DNA of 32,000 nucleotides from assembly GCA_021498095.1 (NCBI GenBank), contig JAIZWK010000001.1:1260001-1292000 (forward strand), given 5' to 3'. Shown here piece by piece: positions 8,193-16,022 of the stretch (position 1 is its first letter; each line of letters begins with the position of its first letter). This DNA is from Candidatus Harpocratesius repetitus (GTDB lineage Archaea > Asgardarchaeota > Lokiarchaeia > Sigyniarchaeales > Promethearchaeaceae). Both the position numbers and the translations under genes were made by a program. Under the pieces are notes generated by a model. It did no database searches. It had not been told where the DNA came from and saw only the letters and a program-made list of their open reading frames with translations.

Positions 8193-8618
8193 TTATTTAA
8201 AATGAGTTACTATTTTCTTCAATTTATAGATTGATTTTGAGCCACATTTTGGACATTGTGTAAAATCGTCTGATGTTTCCCATTCATGGTCGCAGATCCA
8301 ACAGCCAAAACCAAACCAATCTTCATAAAAGACATGTCCTCCAATTATCTTGAAATCCTTATCTTCAACTAATGCTTGTGCGATTTTTTCAAGACCTGCG
8401 CGTAAAATACGGGAGAAAGTTGGTTGTGATACATTCAATTTATTTGCACATTCTGATTGATCAAGTTTTTGATAGTAATATAAGCGAATTGCTTCATATT
8501 CTTCCAAATTTAAAATAATGGGGTCAATATCTTCTTCTTGTCGTTCTAGATTTTTATAGTGGATTTTTACTTTATGAAATGATTCAGCATCAATCATTCG
8601 AAGTAATTTACGGGGCAT
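8193..8618 (-). CDS. DUF134 HTH protein with C-terminal Zn ribbon
   Basis: LEEYEAIRL..QSECANKLNVSQPTFSRIL..KIAQALVE; CWIC-x12-CPKC. Confidence 0.88.
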   Translation of the reverse strand: MPRKLLRMIDAESFHKVKIHYKNLERQEEDIDPIILNLEEYEAIRLYYYQKLDQSECANKLNVSQPTFSRILRAGLEKIAQALVEDKDFKIIGGHVFYEDWFGFGCWICDHEWETSDDFTQCPKCGSKSIYKLKKIVTHFK

Positions 8619-9018
8619 CGAATTTATCCTCCATTTTGAATGTTGGGGGATTAAACAACTTTAAATTCCCCTTTGTAAAAGCTATAAAATTATTTTTTAC
8701 TGTTTCAGAAATTCCTTGAAAAACTTTAATATCCATTTGAGAAAATCCCAAAAATGCCCGTCTTCCAATTTGTTTAATCACAATTGTATCAACCTTTGAA
8801 TTTTTTAATAACATTATTGGGGTCATACATTTTCCTTGCTGGTGAACAGCATTTTTGATTATTTCTATACTTTCAACTTTATTTGTTTCTGAGTTAAATG
8901 TAATTAGTGTGAATGCATGAGCATGTCCAAAGTGTTCAGCGAGTTTTGAGTGAAGTCCTTCGATTGAACTTGGAAAAGCGATTATTCTTGCAGTCATTTC
9001 CTCCTCATTAAGTGACAA
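8608..9018 (-). CDS. NifB/NifX (FeMo-co binding-like) family protein
   Basis: IAFPS..LAEHFGHAHAFTLI..GKC..IGRRAF pattern; probable start ATG 8997 after GAGGAGG; overlaps DUF134 by 11 bp. Confidence 0.88.
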   Translation of the reverse strand: MSLNEEEMTARIIAFPSSIEGLHSKLAEHFGHAHAFTLITFNSETNKVESIEIIKNAVHQQGKCMTPIMLLKNSKVDTIVIKQIGRRAFLGFSQMDIKVFQGISETVKNNFIAFTKGNLKLFNPPTFKMEDKFDAP

Positions 9019-9151
9019 TTAGGAGAAATTATACATTTATTTTTTACGGTTCTAAAAATCTTGATCTTATGTATTTAAGAAAAATATGGATAAAGAAAAA
9101 AGAGTAGAATTACAGAAAAAAGAGTTGTATATTCATTAATTTAGTTATTTA

Positions 9152-10186
9152 TTAATTCTCAATTATTTCTTTGCAATTTTCTCGCTTGTTCCATAATTTT
9201 TCAGCAATTGCCTCAAATTCTTGCAGGATTTCTTGATCTTCTAAAAATTTTGCAATAGGTTCTTGACTTACAATAGCATATGGCCATCGTGAATTGATAG
9301 GAAATGATCCAAGTATTTCATATCCTTTTTGTTTAAAAAAGGCAGTTAATTCTGAGTACATTTCAAGATTCATATCTTTTTTATTTATGATTATACCAAA
9401 TGGGATATTAAAGGATTTAACAATGGAAATTGCTCTATTAATATCGTGTAAAGCTGCAGTTGTTGGTTCCGTAACAAACACAATAAAATCTACGCCAGTT
9501 ATAGCTGCCAATACTGGACATCCAATACCTGGGGGTCCGTCCATTAGAAGGAAATCCCGATTTTCTTGTTTAGCTTGAACTTCTGCAATTTTTCGAAGTT
9601 CGGTTACCATTTTTCCACTCGTTTGAGATCCTAAGATTGTTTCTCCAGATATTAAAGGAAATCCATAATCTGTCATGATTGTAGTTATTGTTCCACTATT
9701 TACTGGGTTAATTTGAAAGGAATGACTGGGACATAATAACTGACAAGCTTTACAACCTTCACATGCAACAACATCAATAATAGGAATTTTTTTATTTTCA
9801 TCCCAAGAAAGAGCATCAAAAGAGCAAAATTCTTGATCAATACATTGTTTGCAATGTGTGCATTTTTCTGGAATAAATTCGGCTTTTTCACTTGTTTGAA
9901 CTGTTTGCTTATGTGTTTCTCTTGATTTTTCTAATATTTCACTATGTTCAATATTATTGTACGAGTTTTCAGGAGTGAAGAGAATTGCCAAATTTGGAGC
10001 ATCAACATCAGCATCAGCAACAATAATTTGTCTATTTTGCTGGGCTAAAACATAAGCTAAACTCGATGTAATTGATGTTTTTCCCACTCCGCCTTTTCCT
10101 GAAATAACTGTAACTGTGAAAATTTTATATGTTTCCTCAGATTGTTGTTGGGTATTATGAGATTCACTTATCGATTTTACATTCAT
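9152..10186 (-). CDS. MinD-superfamily P-loop ATPase with inserted ferredoxin domain (COG1149 type)
   Basis: Deviant Walker A SGKGGVGKT, DADVDAPNL, CTHCKQC..C and CEGCKACQLLCP, DGPPGIGCP, VTEPT. Confidence 0.92.
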   Translation of the reverse strand: MNVKSISESHNTQQQSEETYKIFTVTVISGKGGVGKTSITSSLAYVLAQQNRQIIVADADVDAPNLAILFTPENSYNNIEHSEILEKSRETHKQTVQTSEKAEFIPEKCTHCKQCIDQEFCSFDALSWDENKKIPIIDVVACEGCKACQLLCPSHSFQINPVNSGTITTIMTDYGFPLISGETILGSQTSGKMVTELRKIAEVQAKQENRDFLLMDGPPGIGCPVLAAITGVDFIVFVTEPTTAALHDINRAISIVKSFNIPFGIIINKKDMNLEMYSELTAFFKQKGYEILGSFPINSRWPYAIVSQEPIAKFLEDQEILQEFEAIAEKLWNKRENCKEIIEN

Positions 10187-10214
10187 TTTTCATTTATCTC
10201 CTTGAGGTATTAAA

Positions 10215-11222
10215 TTAATCTGCTTTTTTTATTCGTAAATTACTTGGCATATTATCATGAATTGGCTTAATAATTGCTTGTATCTTATGAAAGATTTCAA
10301 GAAATTGGTTTTTGGCAGGAAAAGTCCGAGAATCTTGAACGAATGGTTTACCTTTTGCGTAATCTTCCATAATTGTTTTATCAACTTCAATATTGCCTAA
10401 ATATTTTGTTATATCACTGGATAACTTTTTTGTAAGAAAATCTGATTCGTTTGTTAGGTTTGATCGATTCAAAATGAAGTAAGATGGTTTATTTATGAGT
10501 CGAAGTAGTTCTAGTATTCTGTTTAAATCATGTTCTCCGAACGGAGTAGGCTCAGTGACACTGATTACCATATCTGATGCATTGAGTATTTTTTCAACAT
10601 CACAGTGTGCTCCAGGAGCTGAATCGATAATTATTATGTCATACTGGTTCATTATCTCAGGAGTAGTTGCTTGAGAAATCAAATTTTCGACAATAAAAGC
10701 CGACAATGCTTCAGATGGTGTCAATTCCCCTACTAAAAGATCAAGATTTTCAAAAGCATTTGGTATGAAATATTTTGTTCCAATCTGTCGTGCTCCTGCC
10801 TCGATGGCATCATGTGGACAAATTCGCTGGCAAACTTGACATCCAGAACATAAATGCTCCATAAGTGATGGATAATGTTCGGGAAATTGTAAAATTGCAT
10901 GTCGATAACAACCTTTTTGGCAGATTCCACATTTTACACATTTTTCTTTATTAAATTTCGGAATGAAAATATCAATAGGTTGAGAAGAGACTAATTTATT
11001 TTCTAAACTTTTTCCCAATAAAATAAATGTATTTGGATTTTCAACATCACAATCTACCAGCAAAACTCGAGAATTAGATTGAGTAAATGCAACTGCCAGA
11101 TTTGTTGCAACTAATGTTTTTCCAGTTCCACCTTTTCCTCCAGTAACTGCAATTATAGGAGGAAATGATCTATTCGCTATATTTTGAGTAATACTTTCCT
11201 TTTTAAGAGAATTATAGGTCAT
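10215..11222 (-). CDS. MinD-superfamily P-loop ATPase with inserted ferredoxin domain (COG1149 type), second paralog
   Basis: GGKGGTGKT, DCDVENPN, CVKCGICQKGC and CSGCQVCQRICP, DSAPGAHC, VTEPTPFGEHDL. Confidence 0.92.
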   Translation of the reverse strand: MTYNSLKKESITQNIANRSFPPIIAVTGGKGGTGKTLVATNLAVAFTQSNSRVLLVDCDVENPNTFILLGKSLENKLVSSQPIDIFIPKFNKEKCVKCGICQKGCYRHAILQFPEHYPSLMEHLCSGCQVCQRICPHDAIEAGARQIGTKYFIPNAFENLDLLVGELTPSEALSAFIVENLISQATTPEIMNQYDIIIIDSAPGAHCDVEKILNASDMVISVTEPTPFGEHDLNRILELLRLINKPSYFILNRSNLTNESDFLTKKLSSDITKYLGNIEVDKTIMEDYAKGKPFVQDSRTFPAKNQFLEIFHKIQAIIKPIHDNMPSNLRIKKAD

Positions 11223-11295
11223 GGAATTACTCCTTTATTTTGATATTTCATTATTTTATTCTTCTATTGAAAAATAACAAAAAAAAACTAAATAT

Positions 11296-11703
11296 TTAGT
11301 ATCGATGACCTGGGCTTGTAGCAGAGTTAATTTCTTCTAATTCATTTTTTAAGAATGCATCAATTAATTCAGCAACAGTTGCATTCTCTTTTTTTAATGG
11401 ACCAAACATTTGAATATTTGCTTGCTTTAATGCATTTGCTGCATTAGGACCATAATACCCACCAATAATAGTATTCACTCCTTCATTTGCAATTGATTGA
11501 ACTGCCAGCGGCCCTGCTCCTCCCATTGCTTGACTGGCTTTATTTTCTATGATTGAAACTGTTTCAATTTCACCATCATTTAATGAAACAATGGTGAATA
11601 TGGGACAACGACCAAAACGAGTCGTTGCTTTAGCTTTTAATCCTTGATCTGAAGTGCTAGGAACAGCAATTTTTATTGTTTTTGTCTCAGACATTTTTCT
11701 CAC
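11296..11703 (-). CDS. NifB/NifX family protein (first gene of the ATPase operon)
   Basis: KIAVPS..RFGRCPIFTIV..GGAGPLAVQ..GGYYGPNAANAL; probable start ATG 11694. Confidence 0.9.
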   Translation of the reverse strand: MRKMSETKTIKIAVPSTSDQGLKAKATTRFGRCPIFTIVSLNDGEIETVSIIENKASQAMGGAGPLAVQSIANEGVNTIIGGYYGPNAANALKQANIQMFGPLKKENATVAELIDAFLKNELEEINSATSPGHRY

Positions 11704-11756
11704 TTCTATATGATTAAGTTCTTAAATAATATTAAAAATTTTAAATCAATCAAACA

Positions 11757-11776
11757 TTATGAATATTTATTCATAA
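11757..11776. promoter_or_regulatory. Palindromic operator TTATGAATA-TT-TATTCATAA
   Basis: Perfect 9-bp inverted repeat with 2-bp spacer in the divergent NifX/PIG-L intergenic region; identical arms at 12912-12931. Confidence 0.75.
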
Positions 11777-11835
11777 AAATATTTTTTTAAAGAAAAACTT
11801 TTGGAGTTAGAATTAAAAGTAGCAAAATAAAAAGA

Positions 11836-12795
11836 TTGAAAAGAAGAATTTTTCCAGTTGTATTAGTAATTATGAACCAGAAAAAATTCTTGTTTATCTG
11901 TGCCCATCCTGATGATTTGGAATTTAACATTGGTTATCTAATATTCTGCTTGGGGCATAAAAATATCAAGGGAATTGGAAAAGAATTTATCTTTTCGATT
12001 AAAAAAGGATATCCTTCTCCTGCTCAACGCAGTGTTTCTGTTCGAATTATTAGTATGACTCGGGGAGAAATGAGTGATTATACTTTAATAACCAAATCCA
12101 CAAAAAGGGCCGCAGAAGTTAGAACTGCTGAATTAATCAAAGCTATGAATTATCTTGGAATATCAGAGAATGAAATTTCTTTTCTCGGATGTTTTGATGG
12201 TGATATTCGAGTTACAGATCGAAATATTGAGAAGCTTAAGAGAGAGATAATTACATTTCAACCAGATTATGTAATTGCTCCTGAACCAGTATTTACATGG
12301 TATTTCCATCAAGATCACCGAAAAACGGGTAAAATCGCTTATTGGGCAATCCAACGCCTGATTTCTGAAAGAAAAAATCCTAAAAAGATTTTAAAATCCT
12401 CAAATGTTGACAAAATTCCCGCTTTATATTTTTATTCTTCTTTATTTCATCATTTCTACTTTCCTAAGTATCCTTCATTTCAAATTTCTGTCAATAATGC
12501 TCTTCAAGCGCATTATTCCCAGAAAGAATTATTATTTGGGAAAGGTGTTAAAATGGATAAAATTACTACCACTATACATGGATGGCATGTTTCCAATCAT
12601 AAATATGCTCAAGCATTGAGACGTCAATTCATTTCTGGACGAGATCCGCTTTCAGCTAAATTTAAGCTTGATAAAAAGAATACTTTATGGAGAAAATTAT
12701 TATACATTTTAGGTGTAAAAATAGTTTATTCTTATACTATTCCAGAATTGGAAAGTAAACGTAAATTTTTTGATGGGACCTTACCGCCATCATAA
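11836..12795 (+). CDS. PIG-L/LmbE family deacetylase
   Basis: AHPDD and HQDH Zn-binding motifs, TRGE and R-x-x-E segments; probable start ATG 11872. Confidence 0.88.
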   Translation: MKRRIFPVVLVIMNQKKFLFICAHPDDLEFNIGYLIFCLGHKNIKGIGKEFIFSIKKGYPSPAQRSVSVRIISMTRGEMSDYTLITKSTKRAAEVRTAELIKAMNYLGISENEISFLGCFDGDIRVTDRNIEKLKREIITFQPDYVIAPEPVFTWYFHQDHRKTGKIAYWAIQRLISERKNPKKILKSSNVDKIPALYFYSSLFHHFYFPKYPSFQISVNNALQAHYSQKELLFGKGVKMDKITTTIHGWHVSNHKYAQALRRQFISGRDPLSAKFKLDKKNTLWRKLLYILGVKIVYSYTIPELESKRKFFDGTLPPS

Positions 12796-12879
12796 TTTTT
12801 ATTCAAATTTACTCTCCACCGTTCATTTTCCTTTTTTCATTCCTTTTACATTTTTTGCTTTCAGATCAATAACAAAGAC

Positions 12880-12887
12880 TTTAAATA
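12880..12887 (+). promoter_or_regulatory. Candidate TATA box for the DUF5320 gene
   Basis: TTTAAATA preceded by purine-rich AAAGAC (BRE-like), about 25 nt upstream of the palindrome; weak evidence in AT-rich DNA. Confidence 0.35.
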
Positions 12888-12911
12888 TATGGAATGAGTT
12901 TAGTCACTTAG

Positions 12912-12931
12912 TTATGAATAATTATTCATAA
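12912..12931. promoter_or_regulatory. Palindromic operator TTATGAATAATTATTCATAA
   Basis: Perfect 20-bp palindrome 26 nt upstream of the ATG at 12958; same arms as 11757-11776. Confidence 0.75.
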
Positions 12932-12948
12932 ATATTTAAATAAAAAAA

Positions 12949-13323
12949 GTGATTAATATGCCCTACGGAGACAGAACAGGTCCTAATGGATTAGGTCCTC
13001 GAACAGGTCGAGGATTAGGTTTTTGTAATGGCTACCCACAACCGGGATATGCAAATCCGGTTGGATATCCTCCATATTCGCAACGAGGTTTTGGTCGAGG
13101 CGGAGGTTATGGTCGAGGTGGTGGATGGGGAAGAGGTGGAGGTTATGGTCGAGGTTATCGACACTGGGCTCCTATATATGATGTCTATCCTCCAATTTAT
13201 CCTCCAACTTCAATTTCTCCTGAAGATCAAAAGAAAACCTATGAACTTTATGTTCAAAATCTTGAAAAACAACTTAACGATGCAAAAAAACATTTAGAAA
13301 ATTTTGAAAAAGATAATGAATAA
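12949..13323 (+). CDS. DUF5320 family Gly/Arg-rich protein
   Basis: MPYGDRTGPNGLGPRTGRGLGFC N-terminus, Gly-rich middle, C-terminal coiled coil; probable start ATG 12958. Confidence 0.88.
   Translation: MINMPYGDRTGPNGLGPRTGRGLGFCNGYPQPGYANPVGYPPYSQRGFGRGGGYGRGGGWGRGGGYGRGYRHWAPIYDVYPPIYPPTSISPEDQKKTYELYVQNLEKQLNDAKKHLENFEKDNE
13093..13158 (+). repeat. 18-bp coding tandem repeat (GRGGG[YW] x3 plus a partial unit)
   Basis: ggtcgaggcggaggttat / ggtcgaggtggtggatgg / ggaagaggtggaggttat / ggtcgaggttat. Confidence 0.8.
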
Positions 13324-13394
13324 AAAGTCGAGAAAAATTTCCAAAATGCTGATATAATAACACCTCATTATGCAAAAAATTCTTTTTTTTTTAG

Positions 13395-13422
13395 AGTATG
13401 CATTAAATTGCATACTTTTTTT
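13395..13422 (+). terminator. Hairpin plus T-tract between convergent DUF5320 and Lrp genes
   Basis: 8-bp stem AGTATGCA/TGCATACT with 6-nt loop, running into T7. Confidence 0.5.
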
Positions 13423-13465
13423 CTTCTTTTTGTGTTCTTTCCTACATTATTTTTTCTTATTTATA

Positions 13466-14056
13466 TCACATTAAATTTAATTCTTCAGGTGATCTAACTC
13501 CTGCTCTTTTTCTGTCTGCTGCACAAACAGGATTCCCTTTACAAGGATCATCAGTATTTACCAAAGATTCAACTGTTAGGTTAAGTGGAAAGATTATTGG
13601 ACTCGCCATAGAAGTAACCAAATCCATTTGAATTCGAAATACATAAGGTTTGTTACGAAAATGTCTATCCATAACAGCATCTAAATGTTTTAAGTTTCGA
13701 GAAGCCATAAAAAGAGTCATATTATAATCTCCTGTGCTTTTAATTGCATTTATAACAAAAGGGCAATATTCACATAATTCCATTATATCTTCTGGACGAG
13801 TAGTTTTTAGATTAACACGTATTAAGTTCAGTTCTGGAATTTGTTGAAAATTTACACCAATTTGTGTGGCAATTAATCCTCTTTCGGCTAATTTTTTAAT
13901 GCGAGCGCCAATGGCTGGTTGGGATAATCCTAAGATTTCAGCGATTTTGGAATGTGTTATCGAAGGATCATGTTGCAATTGGTCTATTATGGCTTTGTCA
14001 GTTGAATCAATATTAAAATTCTTTTTCATTACCTTCAAGAATACGTGTGCTGACAT
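13466..14056 (-). CDS. Lrp/AsnC family transcriptional regulator with extra Cys motifs
   Basis: IDSTDKAIIDQLQHDPSITHSKIAEILGLSQPAIGARIKKL HTH; RAM-like domain with CEYCP; C-terminal PC-x5-C. Confidence 0.88.
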   Translation of the reverse strand: MSAHVFLKVMKKNFNIDSTDKAIIDQLQHDPSITHSKIAEILGLSQPAIGARIKKLAERGLIATQIGVNFQQIPELNLIRVNLKTTRPEDIMELCEYCPFVINAIKSTGDYNMTLFMASRNLKHLDAVMDRHFRNKPYVFRIQMDLVTSMASPIIFPLNLTVESLVNTDDPCKGNPVCAADRKRAGVRSPEELNLM

Positions 14057-14205
14057 TATATTTTATCTTTTCTTTTCCTATATAATGAAATCAAAAATAT
14101 TTTCTAATTTCGTTAATTTTCATTTTCAACAGTTTATTAAAGAGAATCATACTGTATGTATTGAAGAATGATCAAAAAATCTGATGATCAAGTATAATCT
14201 TCAAT

Positions 14206-14994
14206 GTGTTTAGGAGGGTTTTAATGGGACGTCCCCACAAATATCGCAAAATTTCAAATATTGTGCCGAAATTTAATAATTACCATCCAAAAGGAATAAA
14301 TTCTCAAGATGTTAATCAAATTTTTCTTAGTATGGAGGAATTTGAAGCCCTTCGACTTCGTTATTATGAAGATCTTAAACAAACTGATGCAGCTCAAAAA
14401 ATGCAAATTTCACAGACTACATTTTCAAGAATTCTATCTAAAGCTTATAGAAAGATAACAAAAGCTTTAGTTGAAGGGTATGGAATTGCAATACAAACAG
14501 AAATCATGCCTCTACCAATTAAACCTGTTCAACCTATTTCATCTATTCCTCCTCGGTATGGTCGCCGTAGACATGGGCGTGCTTTTCATAGTATTGAGGA
14601 CTTTCCGCAAAGGGGGGGTTCAAAACATCTTGGTAATAATTCATTTAAAATGGATCAAGATAAATCTTTTCAACTGGATCAATCACCAAATTGGATTCCA
14701 CGACCGACAGATCCAAAAAGTCAAGAAAGGCAGGTAATTGTTTTTAAAGGTTGGGGATGTTTGAATTGTGGGTTTGTTTTTCAAACTTCGTCGCAATCTG
14801 ATGAAAATTTGAAAGAAAGAAATGATAAAAAAGTGGGTGAATTCGCTGAAGAAAGAAACTATAAAGATCATAAAGACCTTGAAAAGAAAGAAATTTCTTC
14901 TTCCCAATCAAACACAACTAAGCAAAAACCAATATGTCCGAAATGTAACTCAAAAAAAACATATCAATTAATCAAAAAATTATCTCCTGATTGA
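14206..14994 (+). CDS. DUF134 HTH protein, long paralog with split Zn ribbon
   Basis: MGRPHKYRKI..EEFEALRL..AAQKMQISQTTFSRIL..KALVEG; CLNC-x55-CPKC; probable start ATG 14224 after AGGAGG. Confidence 0.88.
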   Translation: MFRRVLMGRPHKYRKISNIVPKFNNYHPKGINSQDVNQIFLSMEEFEALRLRYYEDLKQTDAAQKMQISQTTFSRILSKAYRKITKALVEGYGIAIQTEIMPLPIKPVQPISSIPPRYGRRRHGRAFHSIEDFPQRGGSKHLGNNSFKMDQDKSFQLDQSPNWIPRPTDPKSQERQVIVFKGWGCLNCGFVFQTSSQSDENLKERNDKKVGEFAEERNYKDHKDLEKKEISSSQSNTTKQKPICPKCNSKKTYQLIKKLSPD

Positions 14995-15110: not shown

Positions 15111-16022
15111 ATGGAGAGCTCTGAAAAAATAAGTTCACAAAAACAAACATCACTAATTTCTCATCCTTTTCAAAATGAGGGTCTAAGTCAAGAATTATTT
15201 GATTTTTTTAGTAATCAGCCAGTATCTCTGTCTTCTTCAGAACTTATTGATTCTTTCAACAAATTCTCTTCACTTCCCAAACATTGGTCTGGCCGAAAAT
15301 TAAAACAATTTTTAACAGGAGAGGGCTTTTTACGATATACACGCGCAAATCCAAAGGGATATTATTTAAATATTAAAGAAATTCAAGAAACCTATCTTAA
15401 AGAATCGAATTTATTGCTAAAAGAATCAGAAAAATCAACTTCTGAAAAAATAATAAATTCATTAGCAAATAATCCACCTGAAACAAATAAAAAAACGCAT
15501 AGATCTCATTCATTTTCGTCCCAAGAATCTATAAATGATATTTTGGATACGATTCCTGATTTCCCACAATATCTTTTGGCAAGAATGCCAAAAAAAGCGC
15601 GTTATGCATTTCGTTTAGGTGTAGCTCAAATTAATTCTTTATCGATAAGTAAATTAGATCATATGATTGAATATTTAACAGCTGCAAAAATGTTTTTTGA
15701 TACTACTTATTCCAATGAAGGAGAATTAGTTAAGGCAATTAATGATAAAATAAGATATATGTCAGAAATTTCCGAAATGCGCCATTCTGAATCCATTCAA
15801 AGGGAATTTCAAAAAATATTCTATTCCCTATATTCTAAAGGAAAATTCTCATCAATTATTCAAAATTGGGGTGTAAAATATGGATTGGATGGGTGTGCTT
15901 TTCGATGTTGGAAAAAAATGGGAAAAAAAGCCAAAAAAATACCTATTTCGGATTATGCTCTTAGGAAAATGATTGCAGAAGTATTAAAAGAAAAATTTCC
16001 AGATAAATTAAAAGAGAAGTAG
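15111..16022 (+). CDS. Hypothetical protein (possible N-terminal winged helix)
   Basis: 303-aa ORF with AAGGA RBS-like motif, 14 bp upstream of the M24 gene; no family recognised. Confidence 0.7.
   Translation: MESSEKISSQKQTSLISHPFQNEGLSQELFDFFSNQPVSLSSSELIDSFNKFSSLPKHWSGRKLKQFLTGEGFLRYTRANPKGYYLNIKEIQETYLKESNLLLKESEKSTSEKIINSLANNPPETNKKTHRSHSFSSQESINDILDTIPDFPQYLLARMPKKARYAFRLGVAQINSLSISKLDHMIEYLTAAKMFFDTTYSNEGELVKAINDKIRYMSEISEMRHSESIQREFQKIFYSLYSKGKFSSIIQNWGVKYGLDGCAFRCWKKMGKKAKKIPISDYALRKMIAEVLKEKFPDKLKEK

Follow-up and report, generated by a model that had tools for sequence, protein, structure and literature searches.

A palindromic operator connects an ORP-like NifX-ATPase locus of Candidatus Harpocratesius repetitus with iron-import and iron-sulfur carrier genes

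We analysed a 32,000-nt stretch of DNA from the Asgard archaeon Candidatus Harpocratesius repetitus (GenBank assembly GCA_021498095.1, contig JAIZWK010000001.1, positions 1,260,001 to 1,292,000), hereafter the window. It encodes an operon of two NifX-like proteins, two ferredoxin-containing ATPases and a DUF134 regulator, flanked by a DUF5320 gene and a second DUF134 gene. A palindromic operator at this locus recurs upstream of feoA-feoB and other genes on the same chromosome, and the region is probably the core of a DUF134-repressed regulon for iron and iron-sulfur (Fe-S) homeostasis.

Results

Gene content of the locus

Domains were called by Pfam and NCBIfam profile searches of the window proteins; the genome, labelled G000, is a closed 4.36-Mb chromosome of a Lokiarchaeia-type archaeon that is related to Promethearchaeum syntrophicum MK-D1 without being identical to it. 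The nine open reading frames (ORFs) described in a first-pass annotation were all recovered at the same positions, and both databases agreed with the domains it had assigned. The genes and operator copies are as follows.

8193..8618, minus strand: DUF134 regulator, short paralogue (Pfam PF02001, E 4.8e-14); last gene of the operon
8608..9018, minus strand: NifX-like protein b, NifXb (PF02579, Nitro_FeMo-Co, E 7.9e-15); His/Cys type, HFGH...QQGKCM
9152..10186, minus strand: MinD/ParA-type ATPase b (Pfam ParA/CbiA/Fer4) with an inserted 2x[4Fe-4S] ferredoxin domain
10215..11222, minus strand: MinD/ParA-type ATPase a (Pfam) with an inserted 2x[4Fe-4S] ferredoxin domain
11296..11703, minus strand: NifX-like protein a, NifXa, probably IssA/MTH1175-type (PF02579, E 3.5e-17); first gene of the operon, without a tail
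11757..11776, no strand: operator copy 1, TTATGAATATTTATTCATAA, in the divergent NifXa/PIG-L promoter region; weight-matrix score 25.7 bits
11836..12795, plus strand: PIG-L/LmbE-type deacetylase (PF02585, E 8.8e-17)
12912..12931, no strand: operator copy 2, TTATGAATAATTATTCATAA, directly 5' of a TTTAAATA box and DUF5320; 27.0 bits
12949..13323, plus strand: DUF5320 (PF17253, E 2.8e-23)
13466..14056, minus strand: Lrp/AsnC-family regulator (HTH_AsnC / AsnC_trans_reg) with extra cysteines (C95, C98, C172, C178)
14206..14994, plus strand: DUF134 regulator, long paralogue, DUF134L (PF02001, E 1.5e-21)
15111..16022, plus strand: 303-aa protein without an assigned family; conserved 3' of the long DUF134

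Translation of NifXb probably starts at the ATG at 8997, and the ATGs at 11694 and 12958 are the likely starts of NifXa and DUF5320. The two ATPases are paralogues (28% identical), and each combines a deviant Walker A motif, GKGGxGKT, with eight cysteines across two ferredoxin motifs (GKGGTGKT and two CxxCxxCxxxC in ATPase a; GKGGVGKT, CTHCKQCx5C and CEGCKACQLLC in ATPase b). The short DUF134 protein, a candidate autoregulated repressor, consists of a helix-turn-helix (HTH) domain and a C-terminal Cys4 ribbon (C106, C109, C122, C125). In the long one, an extended linker joins a canonical N-terminal domain to a Cys4 ribbon (C185, C188, C244, C247), and its orthologues were found in Promethearchaeum and Lokiarchaeum. 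These are the only two DUF134 genes of the genome, and DUF5320 is present in a single copy. A full Mrp/NBP35 gene, whose absence had already been remarked on, was not found in the window; the only true copy in the genome lies at G000 446667-447569.

A shared operator and its targets on the chromosome

The palindrome that the first-pass annotation had seen as shared is real. It has the form TTATGAATA-NN-TATTCATAA (20 bp, 9-2-9), and its two window copies are identical at 18/18 arm bases. The exact 20-mer occurs three times in the genome, namely at the two window positions and upstream of feoA-feoB. Its 14-nt core, TGAATA-NN-TATTCA, was found seven times, six of them intergenic, compared with 0-4 occurrences of composition-matched control palindromes. 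With a weight matrix trained on 76 sites from other Asgard genomes, 14 sites scored at least 16 bits, versus none in the reversed-genome control. The five best sites precede feoA-feoB, DUF5320, NifXa/PIG-L, a 58-aa ferredoxin-like ORF and NifX3, the third NifX-like gene of the genome, which carries a His-rich tail. Moreover, a core site lies 91 nt upstream of the sole true Mrp/NBP35 gene. Because the same operator marks feoAB, Mrp/NBP35 and the third NifX-like and ferredoxin-like genes at four other chromosomal places, the locus is, contrary to the earlier claim, not self-contained, and the Mrp that seemed to be missing is therefore a dispersed member of the regulon.

The ferredoxin-like gene is unannotated (G000:C1:4022988-4023164; L190 289-465) and lies directly downstream of the fourth-best site. 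Its product has the pattern CxxCxxCxxxC...CP, matches Pfam below threshold (best E 0.0022) and is 33% identical to the 57-aa ferredoxin of a Methanocellales cluster described below. The interpretation of the site at G000 4022951 as a chance match between convergent genes was dropped, since it precedes this ORF. A second feoB (661 aa; G000:C1:2443875-2447420, L193) adjoins a DtxR-like protein with a C-terminal FeoA domain, and the genome-wide weight-matrix scan found no DUF134-type operator there; the genome seems to have two separately regulated ferrous-iron importers.

Two further places on the chromosome were noted. At G000:C1:3687191-3687212, an 18-bit operator-like site separates two divergent genes, one for a protein like FMN-dependent dehydrogenases and the other for a DUF2207-like membrane protein; it marks a weaker target of the regulon or else arose by chance. 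A fourth NifX-like gene (147 aa; G000:C1:3158680-3159123, L192 1181-1624) has no operator and adjoins a 494-aa ORF with a weak Cas12f/TnpB-like zinc-finger match.

Conservation of the gene set and of the operator

ATPase homologues were present in 213 of the 301 Asgard genomes sampled and in 64 of the 90 high-quality ones, almost always as two per genome. Co-conservation in relatives, on which the idea of a system had been staked beforehand, was examined in 20 diverse 17-kb Asgard loci. The NifX-ATPase-ATPase core was found in 20/20 loci, with DUF134 nearby in 17/20 and DUF5320 nearby in 7/20. In several other Asgard lineages Mrp/NBP35 (PF10609, E ~1e-92) lies inside the operon itself.

The operator recurs 5' of the NifX-ATPase operon, of DUF5320 and of extra NifX-like genes across many Asgard genera and families. 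On a Hermodarchaeota contig (L131), a single cluster that contains four exact sites brings together three NifX genes, DUF134, the two ATPases, Mrp, DUF5320 and feoAB. In the sister family of the same order, 13 of 30 feoB loci carried the operator within 350 nt upstream of feoA when one mismatch was allowed, versus 0-1 for control palindromes, and DUF5320 is often divergent from feoAB there, with two operator copies in between. Outside the Asgard archaea, two Methanocellales-type contigs (L185, L189) carry the order DtxR-FeoA-FeoB-DUF134-Mrp-ferredoxin-DUF5320-NifX/DUF5320-NifX-ATPase-...-ATPase, again with the operator. Among the control genomes, that of Methanosarcina acetivorans gave matches to DUF134, DUF5320 and NifX.

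The PIG-L gene, which had been counted as part of the locus, was found in none of the 20 related Asgard loci, the same genus among them. In the same-genus relative (G089), NifXa and DUF5320 are directly divergent over a 150-nt region that holds two operator copies. The two promoter regions of the window are collinear with the two halves of that uninterrupted region: operator copy 1 is collinear with its NifXa-proximal site, and copy 2 is found there exactly (L038 9764). From this collinearity of the flanks, PIG-L was inserted between the two operators of an ancestral promoter. We therefore rejected it as a member of the system and, on these sequence comparisons, regard it as a lineage-specific insertion. 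It lies 60 nt from operator 1, and it may have been captured by the regulon and be driven from that operator. PIG-L also gave weak, below-cutoff matches to BshB1/BshB2, which are bacillithiol deacetylases; to connect it with low-molecular-weight thiols would be speculative.

Several other features of the locus and its relatives were recorded. The Lrp/AsnC gene is kept in the same genus, and Lrp-like genes lie 3' of feoB in sister-family loci. The 303-aa protein had no match in Pfam or NCBIfam. Genomes of Promethearchaeum and Lokiarchaeum keep it 3' of the long DUF134: in L058-L061 it comes after DUF134L, and in L062 (L. ossiferum) the distance is ~2 kb. In the intergenic region between Lrp and the long DUF134 (14057-14205) there is a conserved, non-palindromic block of ~35 nt (TTAATTTTCATTTTCAACAGTTTATTAAAGA), common to the same-genus relative. 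The 133-nt spacer between ATPase b and NifXb contains a tandem 20-nt direct repeat at 9091-9130 (TAAAGAAAAAAGAGTAGAAT / TACAGAAAAAAGAGTTGTAT), which may serve as an internal promoter or in processing; in relatives (L039 10130, L062 4851) this place is taken by an operator copy. Genes at L050:1298-2518 (confirmed by Pfam) and L053:10207-11394 (alike by inspection) further tie NifX domains to metal transport.

DUF134 as the candidate binder of the operator

All species genomes were scanned with a DUF134 recognition-helix pattern, which yielded 80 loci. The features of the family, an HTH of PF02001, the recognition helix (I/V)SQ(P/T)TFSRIL and a palindrome at its own or neighbouring promoters, are all present at the window locus, and the Cys4 motif GxGC-x2-C...C-x2-C is invariant among DUF134 relatives. 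In 11 of 20 DPANN and 6 of 8 bacterial loci, the 400 nt preceding DUF134, or preceding a DUF5320-DUF134 pair coupled in translation, contained the exact core, and seven control palindromes gave 0 matches in ~900 kb. Ten small genomes (0.5-2.3 Mb) contained 15 exact sites, of which 12 were at the DUF134/DUF5320 operon, in six genomes as the sole site; the reversed control pattern occurred once. The three further exact sites in small DPANN genomes were treated as chance, being inside or at the end of coding regions or next to an unrelated gene. In a test independent of the helix pattern, loci were retrieved through NifX-DUF5320 fusion proteins. Both of the two loci with DUF134 (46-47% GC) had the exact 20-mer between the TATA box and the DUF134 start, and the three without DUF134 had no operator; one of these has Fur instead, together with a Fur-box-like sequence. 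The occurrence of the same DUF134-operator pair in candidate phyla radiation (CPR) and other bacteria also means that the regulation is not specifically archaeal in style, in contrast to the earlier reading.

The AlphaFold2 model of the short DUF134 (pLDDT 78) superimposes through its HTH on the DNA-binding domain of Bacillus subtilis DeoR (7bhy) with a root-mean-square deviation of 0.7 A over 40 residues and 45% identity, and the profile match between the two is at E 1.2e-6. A fold search with the model gave no match at E <= 0.001, with only the 40-50-residue HTH core aligning confidently. DeoR, a member of the SorC family (DNA-binding domain on the left half-operator, 7bhy and 8r7y), resembles DUF134 in having a sigma-70-region-4-type HTH, and it binds a TGAA-N6-TTCA palindrome as a dimer, as is predicted for DUF134; its solved operator, ATTGAACAAAATTTCAAT, has the same TGAA-N6-TTCA core spacing as the palindrome here (PMC11229326). 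Unlike DeoR, DUF134 is without the SorC sugar-phosphate effector domain, and its HTH is followed by nothing, by a Cys4 ribbon or by the DUF5320 motif; its regulon also differs, and it is found in both archaea and bacteria. From the sequence evidence, DUF134 is very probably the cognate, autoregulated binder of the palindrome.

In CPR bacteria the left arm of the operator overlaps the -10 box (TTGACA-N17-TATAAT). In DPANN archaea and Methanocellales the operator is placed downstream of the TATA box and ahead of a leaderless start, and in some cases another copy precedes the TATA box. We infer a repressor mode from these positions. A complex prediction for DUF134L (residues 1-105) with DUF5320 from paired alignments scored 0.00 with the partner disordered, and is not evidence either way. 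A literature search, with most subscription journals outside its reach, found no functional study of DUF134/PF02001/UPF0251/COG1342 or of DUF5320.

Another protein might occupy the palindrome, namely Fur, a DtxR-like protein or the cysteine-containing Lrp of the locus, with DUF134 as a co-regulated passenger or with a different target. The genome encodes one Fur and two or three DtxR-like genes, and feoAB is a textbook target of Fur and DtxR. The Methanocellales cluster begins with DtxR, Fur precedes an Aminicenantes DUF5320/NifX cluster, and Lrp-like genes adjoin feoB or DUF5320 in this order. However, the sole exact sites of CPR and DPANN genomes belong to the DUF134 operon, which has no Lrp gene in its vicinity; the Fur-associated Aminicenantes locus is without the palindrome and has a Fur-box-like sequence in its place; and the second feoB of this genome, beside the gene for the DtxR-FeoA-domain protein, is without the operator. 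The 9-2-9 operator is also unlike what we take to be the Fur and DtxR consensus sequences, whereas its TGAA-N6-TTCA core matches the operator of the homologous DeoR HTH. We consider a binder other than DUF134 unlikely.

A second Asgard DUF134 subfamily was noted in pairing with a 366-aa protein (L075:7962-9640; L079-L083, L091, L092, L105, L107, L117, L125, L127, L129, L130, L132, L137). The L075 partner carries a TrmB-like HTH and, C-terminally, two [4Fe-4S] motifs; the other loci were matched only by similarity to the ATPase query. The TGAATA-NN-TATTCA operator was not found at the loci of this subfamily, and this points to a distinct DUF134 circuit.

NifX-like proteins, DUF5320 and the comparison with the ORP complex

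In Desulfovibrio, the orange protein (ORP) complex includes the MinD-like ATPases Orp3/Orp4, with two [4Fe-4S] motifs each, and Orp8 of the NifX family (PMC6345978). The window locus has this composition, two Fe-S MinD-type ATPases with NifX-family proteins, as the first-pass annotation had proposed. In common with the system of D. vulgaris Hildenborough (Orp3, Orp4, Orp5, Orp8 and Orp9/MrpORP), it has two paralogous MinD-like ATPases with two [4Fe-4S] ferredoxin motifs each and small proteins of the NifX family, shares its regulatory unit with an Mrp/NBP35 Fe-S carrier, is restricted to anaerobes and has a dedicated local regulator (PMC6345978, PMC8359166). In contrast, Mrp here is a single-domain protein encoded 0.8 Mb away and joined only through the operator, and no fusion of the MrpORP (Orp9) type was found, the NF041136 model scoring 37-78 bits against a cutoff of 450. 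Control also differs: Desulfovibrio uses sigma54/OrpR and IHF, and OrpR has been reported as restricted to deltaproteobacteria (PMC8359166), whereas the DUF134 genes and palindrome take this place here, in agreement with the first-pass annotation, and Pfam and NCBIfam gave no match to the enhancer-binding-protein family among the locus proteins. Moreover, the regulon here takes in feoAB, DUF5320 and the ferredoxin-like gene.

Among solved structures, the Mo-Cu ORP is not the closest to the NifX-like proteins. NifXa has MTH1175 as its best solved relative (E 6.5e-17), ahead of the D. gigas ORP 2wfb (E 1.1e-8), and MTH1175 has been placed in the IssA clade by Vaccaro et al. (PMC5524996). NifXb has the TM1816-type structures 1o13/1t3v as its best solved relatives and orthologues in related genomes, and gave no match to 2wfb at E <= 0.01. 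Thus nothing points to a Mo-Cu-S 'orange' cluster at this locus. In most other Asgard lineages the NifXa orthologues bear cationic (GMGR)n tails, and the cationic tail of Pyrococcus furiosus IssA has been proposed to bind anionic thioferrate (PMC5524996).

From its N terminus, DUF5320 consists of the motif MPxxDxTGPxGxGxxTGxxxGxC, Gly/Arg/Trp/Tyr-rich repeats and a Pro-rich segment, to which long forms add a coiled coil. Eleven columns of the N-terminal motif are invariant from CPR bacteria to Asgard archaea (alignment A4). The C-terminal part is fused to a NifX domain in one Asgard locus (PF17253, E 1.4e-10), and more than 110 of the best 120 database relatives are NifX+DUF5320 fusions (Baldrarchaeia, Methanocellales, Bathyarchaeota, Altiarchaeales, Aminicenantes). 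The N-terminal motif is fused to DUF134 in one Woesearchaeota protein (L068). By analogy, the chemistry of DUF5320 and of the GMGR tails matches that of the IssA tail. Separately, L055:6180-6380, upstream of the first NifX gene there, contains a frame very rich in Trp, Gly, Arg, Tyr and Pro (WGRGWGRGWCWW...YYPYYTYPYYGWW), which resembles an extreme IssA-tail or DUF5320-like peptide.

The likeness to the IssA/SipA protein of P. furiosus, which forms thioferrate nanoparticles, includes the NifX-fold domain (IPR003731/PF02579) with MTH1175 as the nearest solved relative of NifXa, the cationic Gly/Arg-rich tails of orthologues in other Asgard lineages, the Pro-rich and Gly/Arg/aromatic chemistry of DUF5320, and the joint induction of these families with FeoB and Mrp, as seen in Thermococcales and Methanococcus voltae (PMC6981617, PMC8516115). 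Unlike IssA, the NifXa of the window has no tail, and the tail-like module is a separate gene, DUF5320, with an additional invariant Cys motif; two Fe-S ATPases accompany the NifX proteins here.

The locus could nevertheless encode an ORP complex in the strict sense, in which a Mo-Cu-S orange protein and its ATPases act under redox control, possibly in a cell-division process, with no special tie to iron supply. The composition as Orp3/Orp4/Orp8 (PMC6345978), the match of NifXa to 2wfb, the MinD-like nature of the ATPases and the suggested archaeal origin of the ORP system, with ORP-type clusters already suggested to exist in Archaea (PMC8359166), would all fit. We nonetheless regard it as improbable, since NifXa is nearer to MTH1175 and IssA-clade proteins, NifXb lacks an ORP match, the MrpORP model falls far below its cutoff, orthologues carry IssA-type tails, the operator ties the operon to feoAB, Mrp and the ferredoxin-like gene, and the conserved neighbourhood showed no genes for Mo or Cu transport or cofactors.

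A further possibility is that the module matures or inserts another complex metallocofactor, of nitrogenase-like or hydrogenase type, with the NifX proteins as carriers and the ATPases as NifH-like reductases or insertases. NifX/NafY/NifB-domain proteins carry FeMo-co precursors (PMC5524996), the ATPases belong to the NifH/CfbC/BchL-type fold family, and radical SAM genes occur in some related clusters. Against this, genes for a nitrogenase-like or any other candidate client enzyme were found neither in the window nor in the conserved neighbourhood, it is feoAB, Mrp, ferredoxin and DUF5320 that are conserved as partners, and in CPR and DPANN genomes of 0.5-0.9 Mb it is the DUF134/DUF5320 pair, not the ATPase module, that stands alone. 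We give this explanation even less weight than a strict ORP complex.

Discussion

The first-pass annotation had read the locus as a self-contained, archaeal-style ORP-like system with its own regulators. Its ORP-like composition, co-conservation and DUF134 control stood up, while self-containment, the membership of PIG-L and a specifically archaeal style did not, and nothing pointed to a Mo-Cu-S cluster. We favour in its place the DUF134-repressed regulon for iron and Fe-S homeostasis. The NifX-fold proteins would hold pre-formed inorganic Fe-S material, and the two ATPases would form a heterodimeric MinD/NifH-like pair with two [4Fe-4S] clusters per subunit, which would spend ATP and low-potential electrons to load, mobilise or pass on this material. 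DUF5320 would provide in trans a cationic Gly/Arg/aromatic tail for anionic iron sulfide, in addition to its invariant Cys motif. A DUF134 dimer is predicted to bind the 20-bp palindrome through its TGAA-N6-TTCA core and so to repress jointly the NifX-ATPase operon, DUF5320, feoAB, Mrp/NBP35 and the third NifX-like and ferredoxin-like genes. Within this regulon, FeoAB would import Fe2+, Mrp and the ferredoxin-like protein would carry clusters, and the NifX-like proteins, DUF5320 and the ATPases would hold and mobilise Fe-S material. Repression would probably be relieved in response to iron or Fe-S status, for which the sensor may be the Cys4 ribbon of DUF134, the Cys motif of DUF5320, or both.

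Published expression data fit such a regulon, by analogy with other archaea. FeoAB and two IssA homologues are co-induced in M. voltae during growth on pyrite (PMC8516115, PMC9431491), and in Thermococcales grown on sulfur, SipA/IssA, an adjacent NifX-like protein, ATPases annotated as 'CobQ with Fe-S domain', FeoB and Mrp/NBP35 rise together (PMC6981617).

Several observations weigh against this interpretation. Asgard lineages with another DUF134 recognition helix (ISRGTxWRL) showed no clear covarying operator, a comparison weakened by the operon start lying further upstream in several loci; the hints found there, TGAATC-CT-GATTCA in L051 and a 32-nt palindrome in L052, were not used as evidence. 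The window operators are located just upstream of TATA-like boxes, not over the start site, and activation instead of repression could apply at them. Fur, the DtxR-like proteins and the Lrp of the locus could all bind AT-rich palindromes, and it is DtxR that stands first in the Methanocellales cluster; even with DUF134 as the binder, either of the two paralogues is a candidate here. The NifXa of the window ends in ...SATSPGHRY without an IssA-type tail, and its same-genus orthologue is likewise tail-less. Finally, an importer and a storage protein under one repressor are not obviously logical, and the proteins may be carriers, not stores.

The proposed logic of the DUF134 regulon, one autoregulated repressor over iron uptake and Fe-S carriers with Cys-rich sensor elements, is that of IscR, SufR, RirA, Fur and DtxR. 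DUF134 has no sequence relationship to these proteins, and its operator differs from what are presumably the Fur and DtxR boxes. The literature searched held no counterpart of the DUF134 operator, of the feoAB/Mrp/ferredoxin regulon or of a bipartite DUF5320. A more tentative extension, which we regard as possible but rather doubtful, is that DUF134 is a cross-domain sensor-repressor of iron sulfide or Fe-S status in anaerobes (Asgard archaea, Methanocellales, DPANN, CPR), analogous to IscR/RirA, with DUF5320 as its bipartite partner. The Cys motif of DUF5320 would complete or substitute for the Cys4 ribbon, its Gly/Arg-rich coiled-coil half would dock on NifX/IssA-type stores, and the fill state of the stores would set the transcription of feoAB, Mrp and the ORP-like ATPases.

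What the ORP-type cluster does in the cell has been an open question since 2011, and the sensing and balancing of iron and sulfide in anaerobic archaea are poorly known. The shared operator ties this cluster to the ferrous-iron importer, to an Fe-S carrier gene and to a ferredoxin-like gene. It could also directly explain why FeoAB and IssA homologues show a 'paradoxical' joint induction in methanogens and Thermococcales. Two large families of unknown function gain testable roles, DUF134 as a repressor and DUF5320 as an IssA-like tail or sensor partner. Operator and protein are nearly unchanged as a pair from CPR bacteria to Asgard archaea, and a binding result in one carrier would therefore inform all of them, including organisms near the eukaryotic ancestor. 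If the sensor-repressor proposal is true, the ORP complex would acquire a role in the storage and mobilisation of iron-sulfur material, not in cell division.

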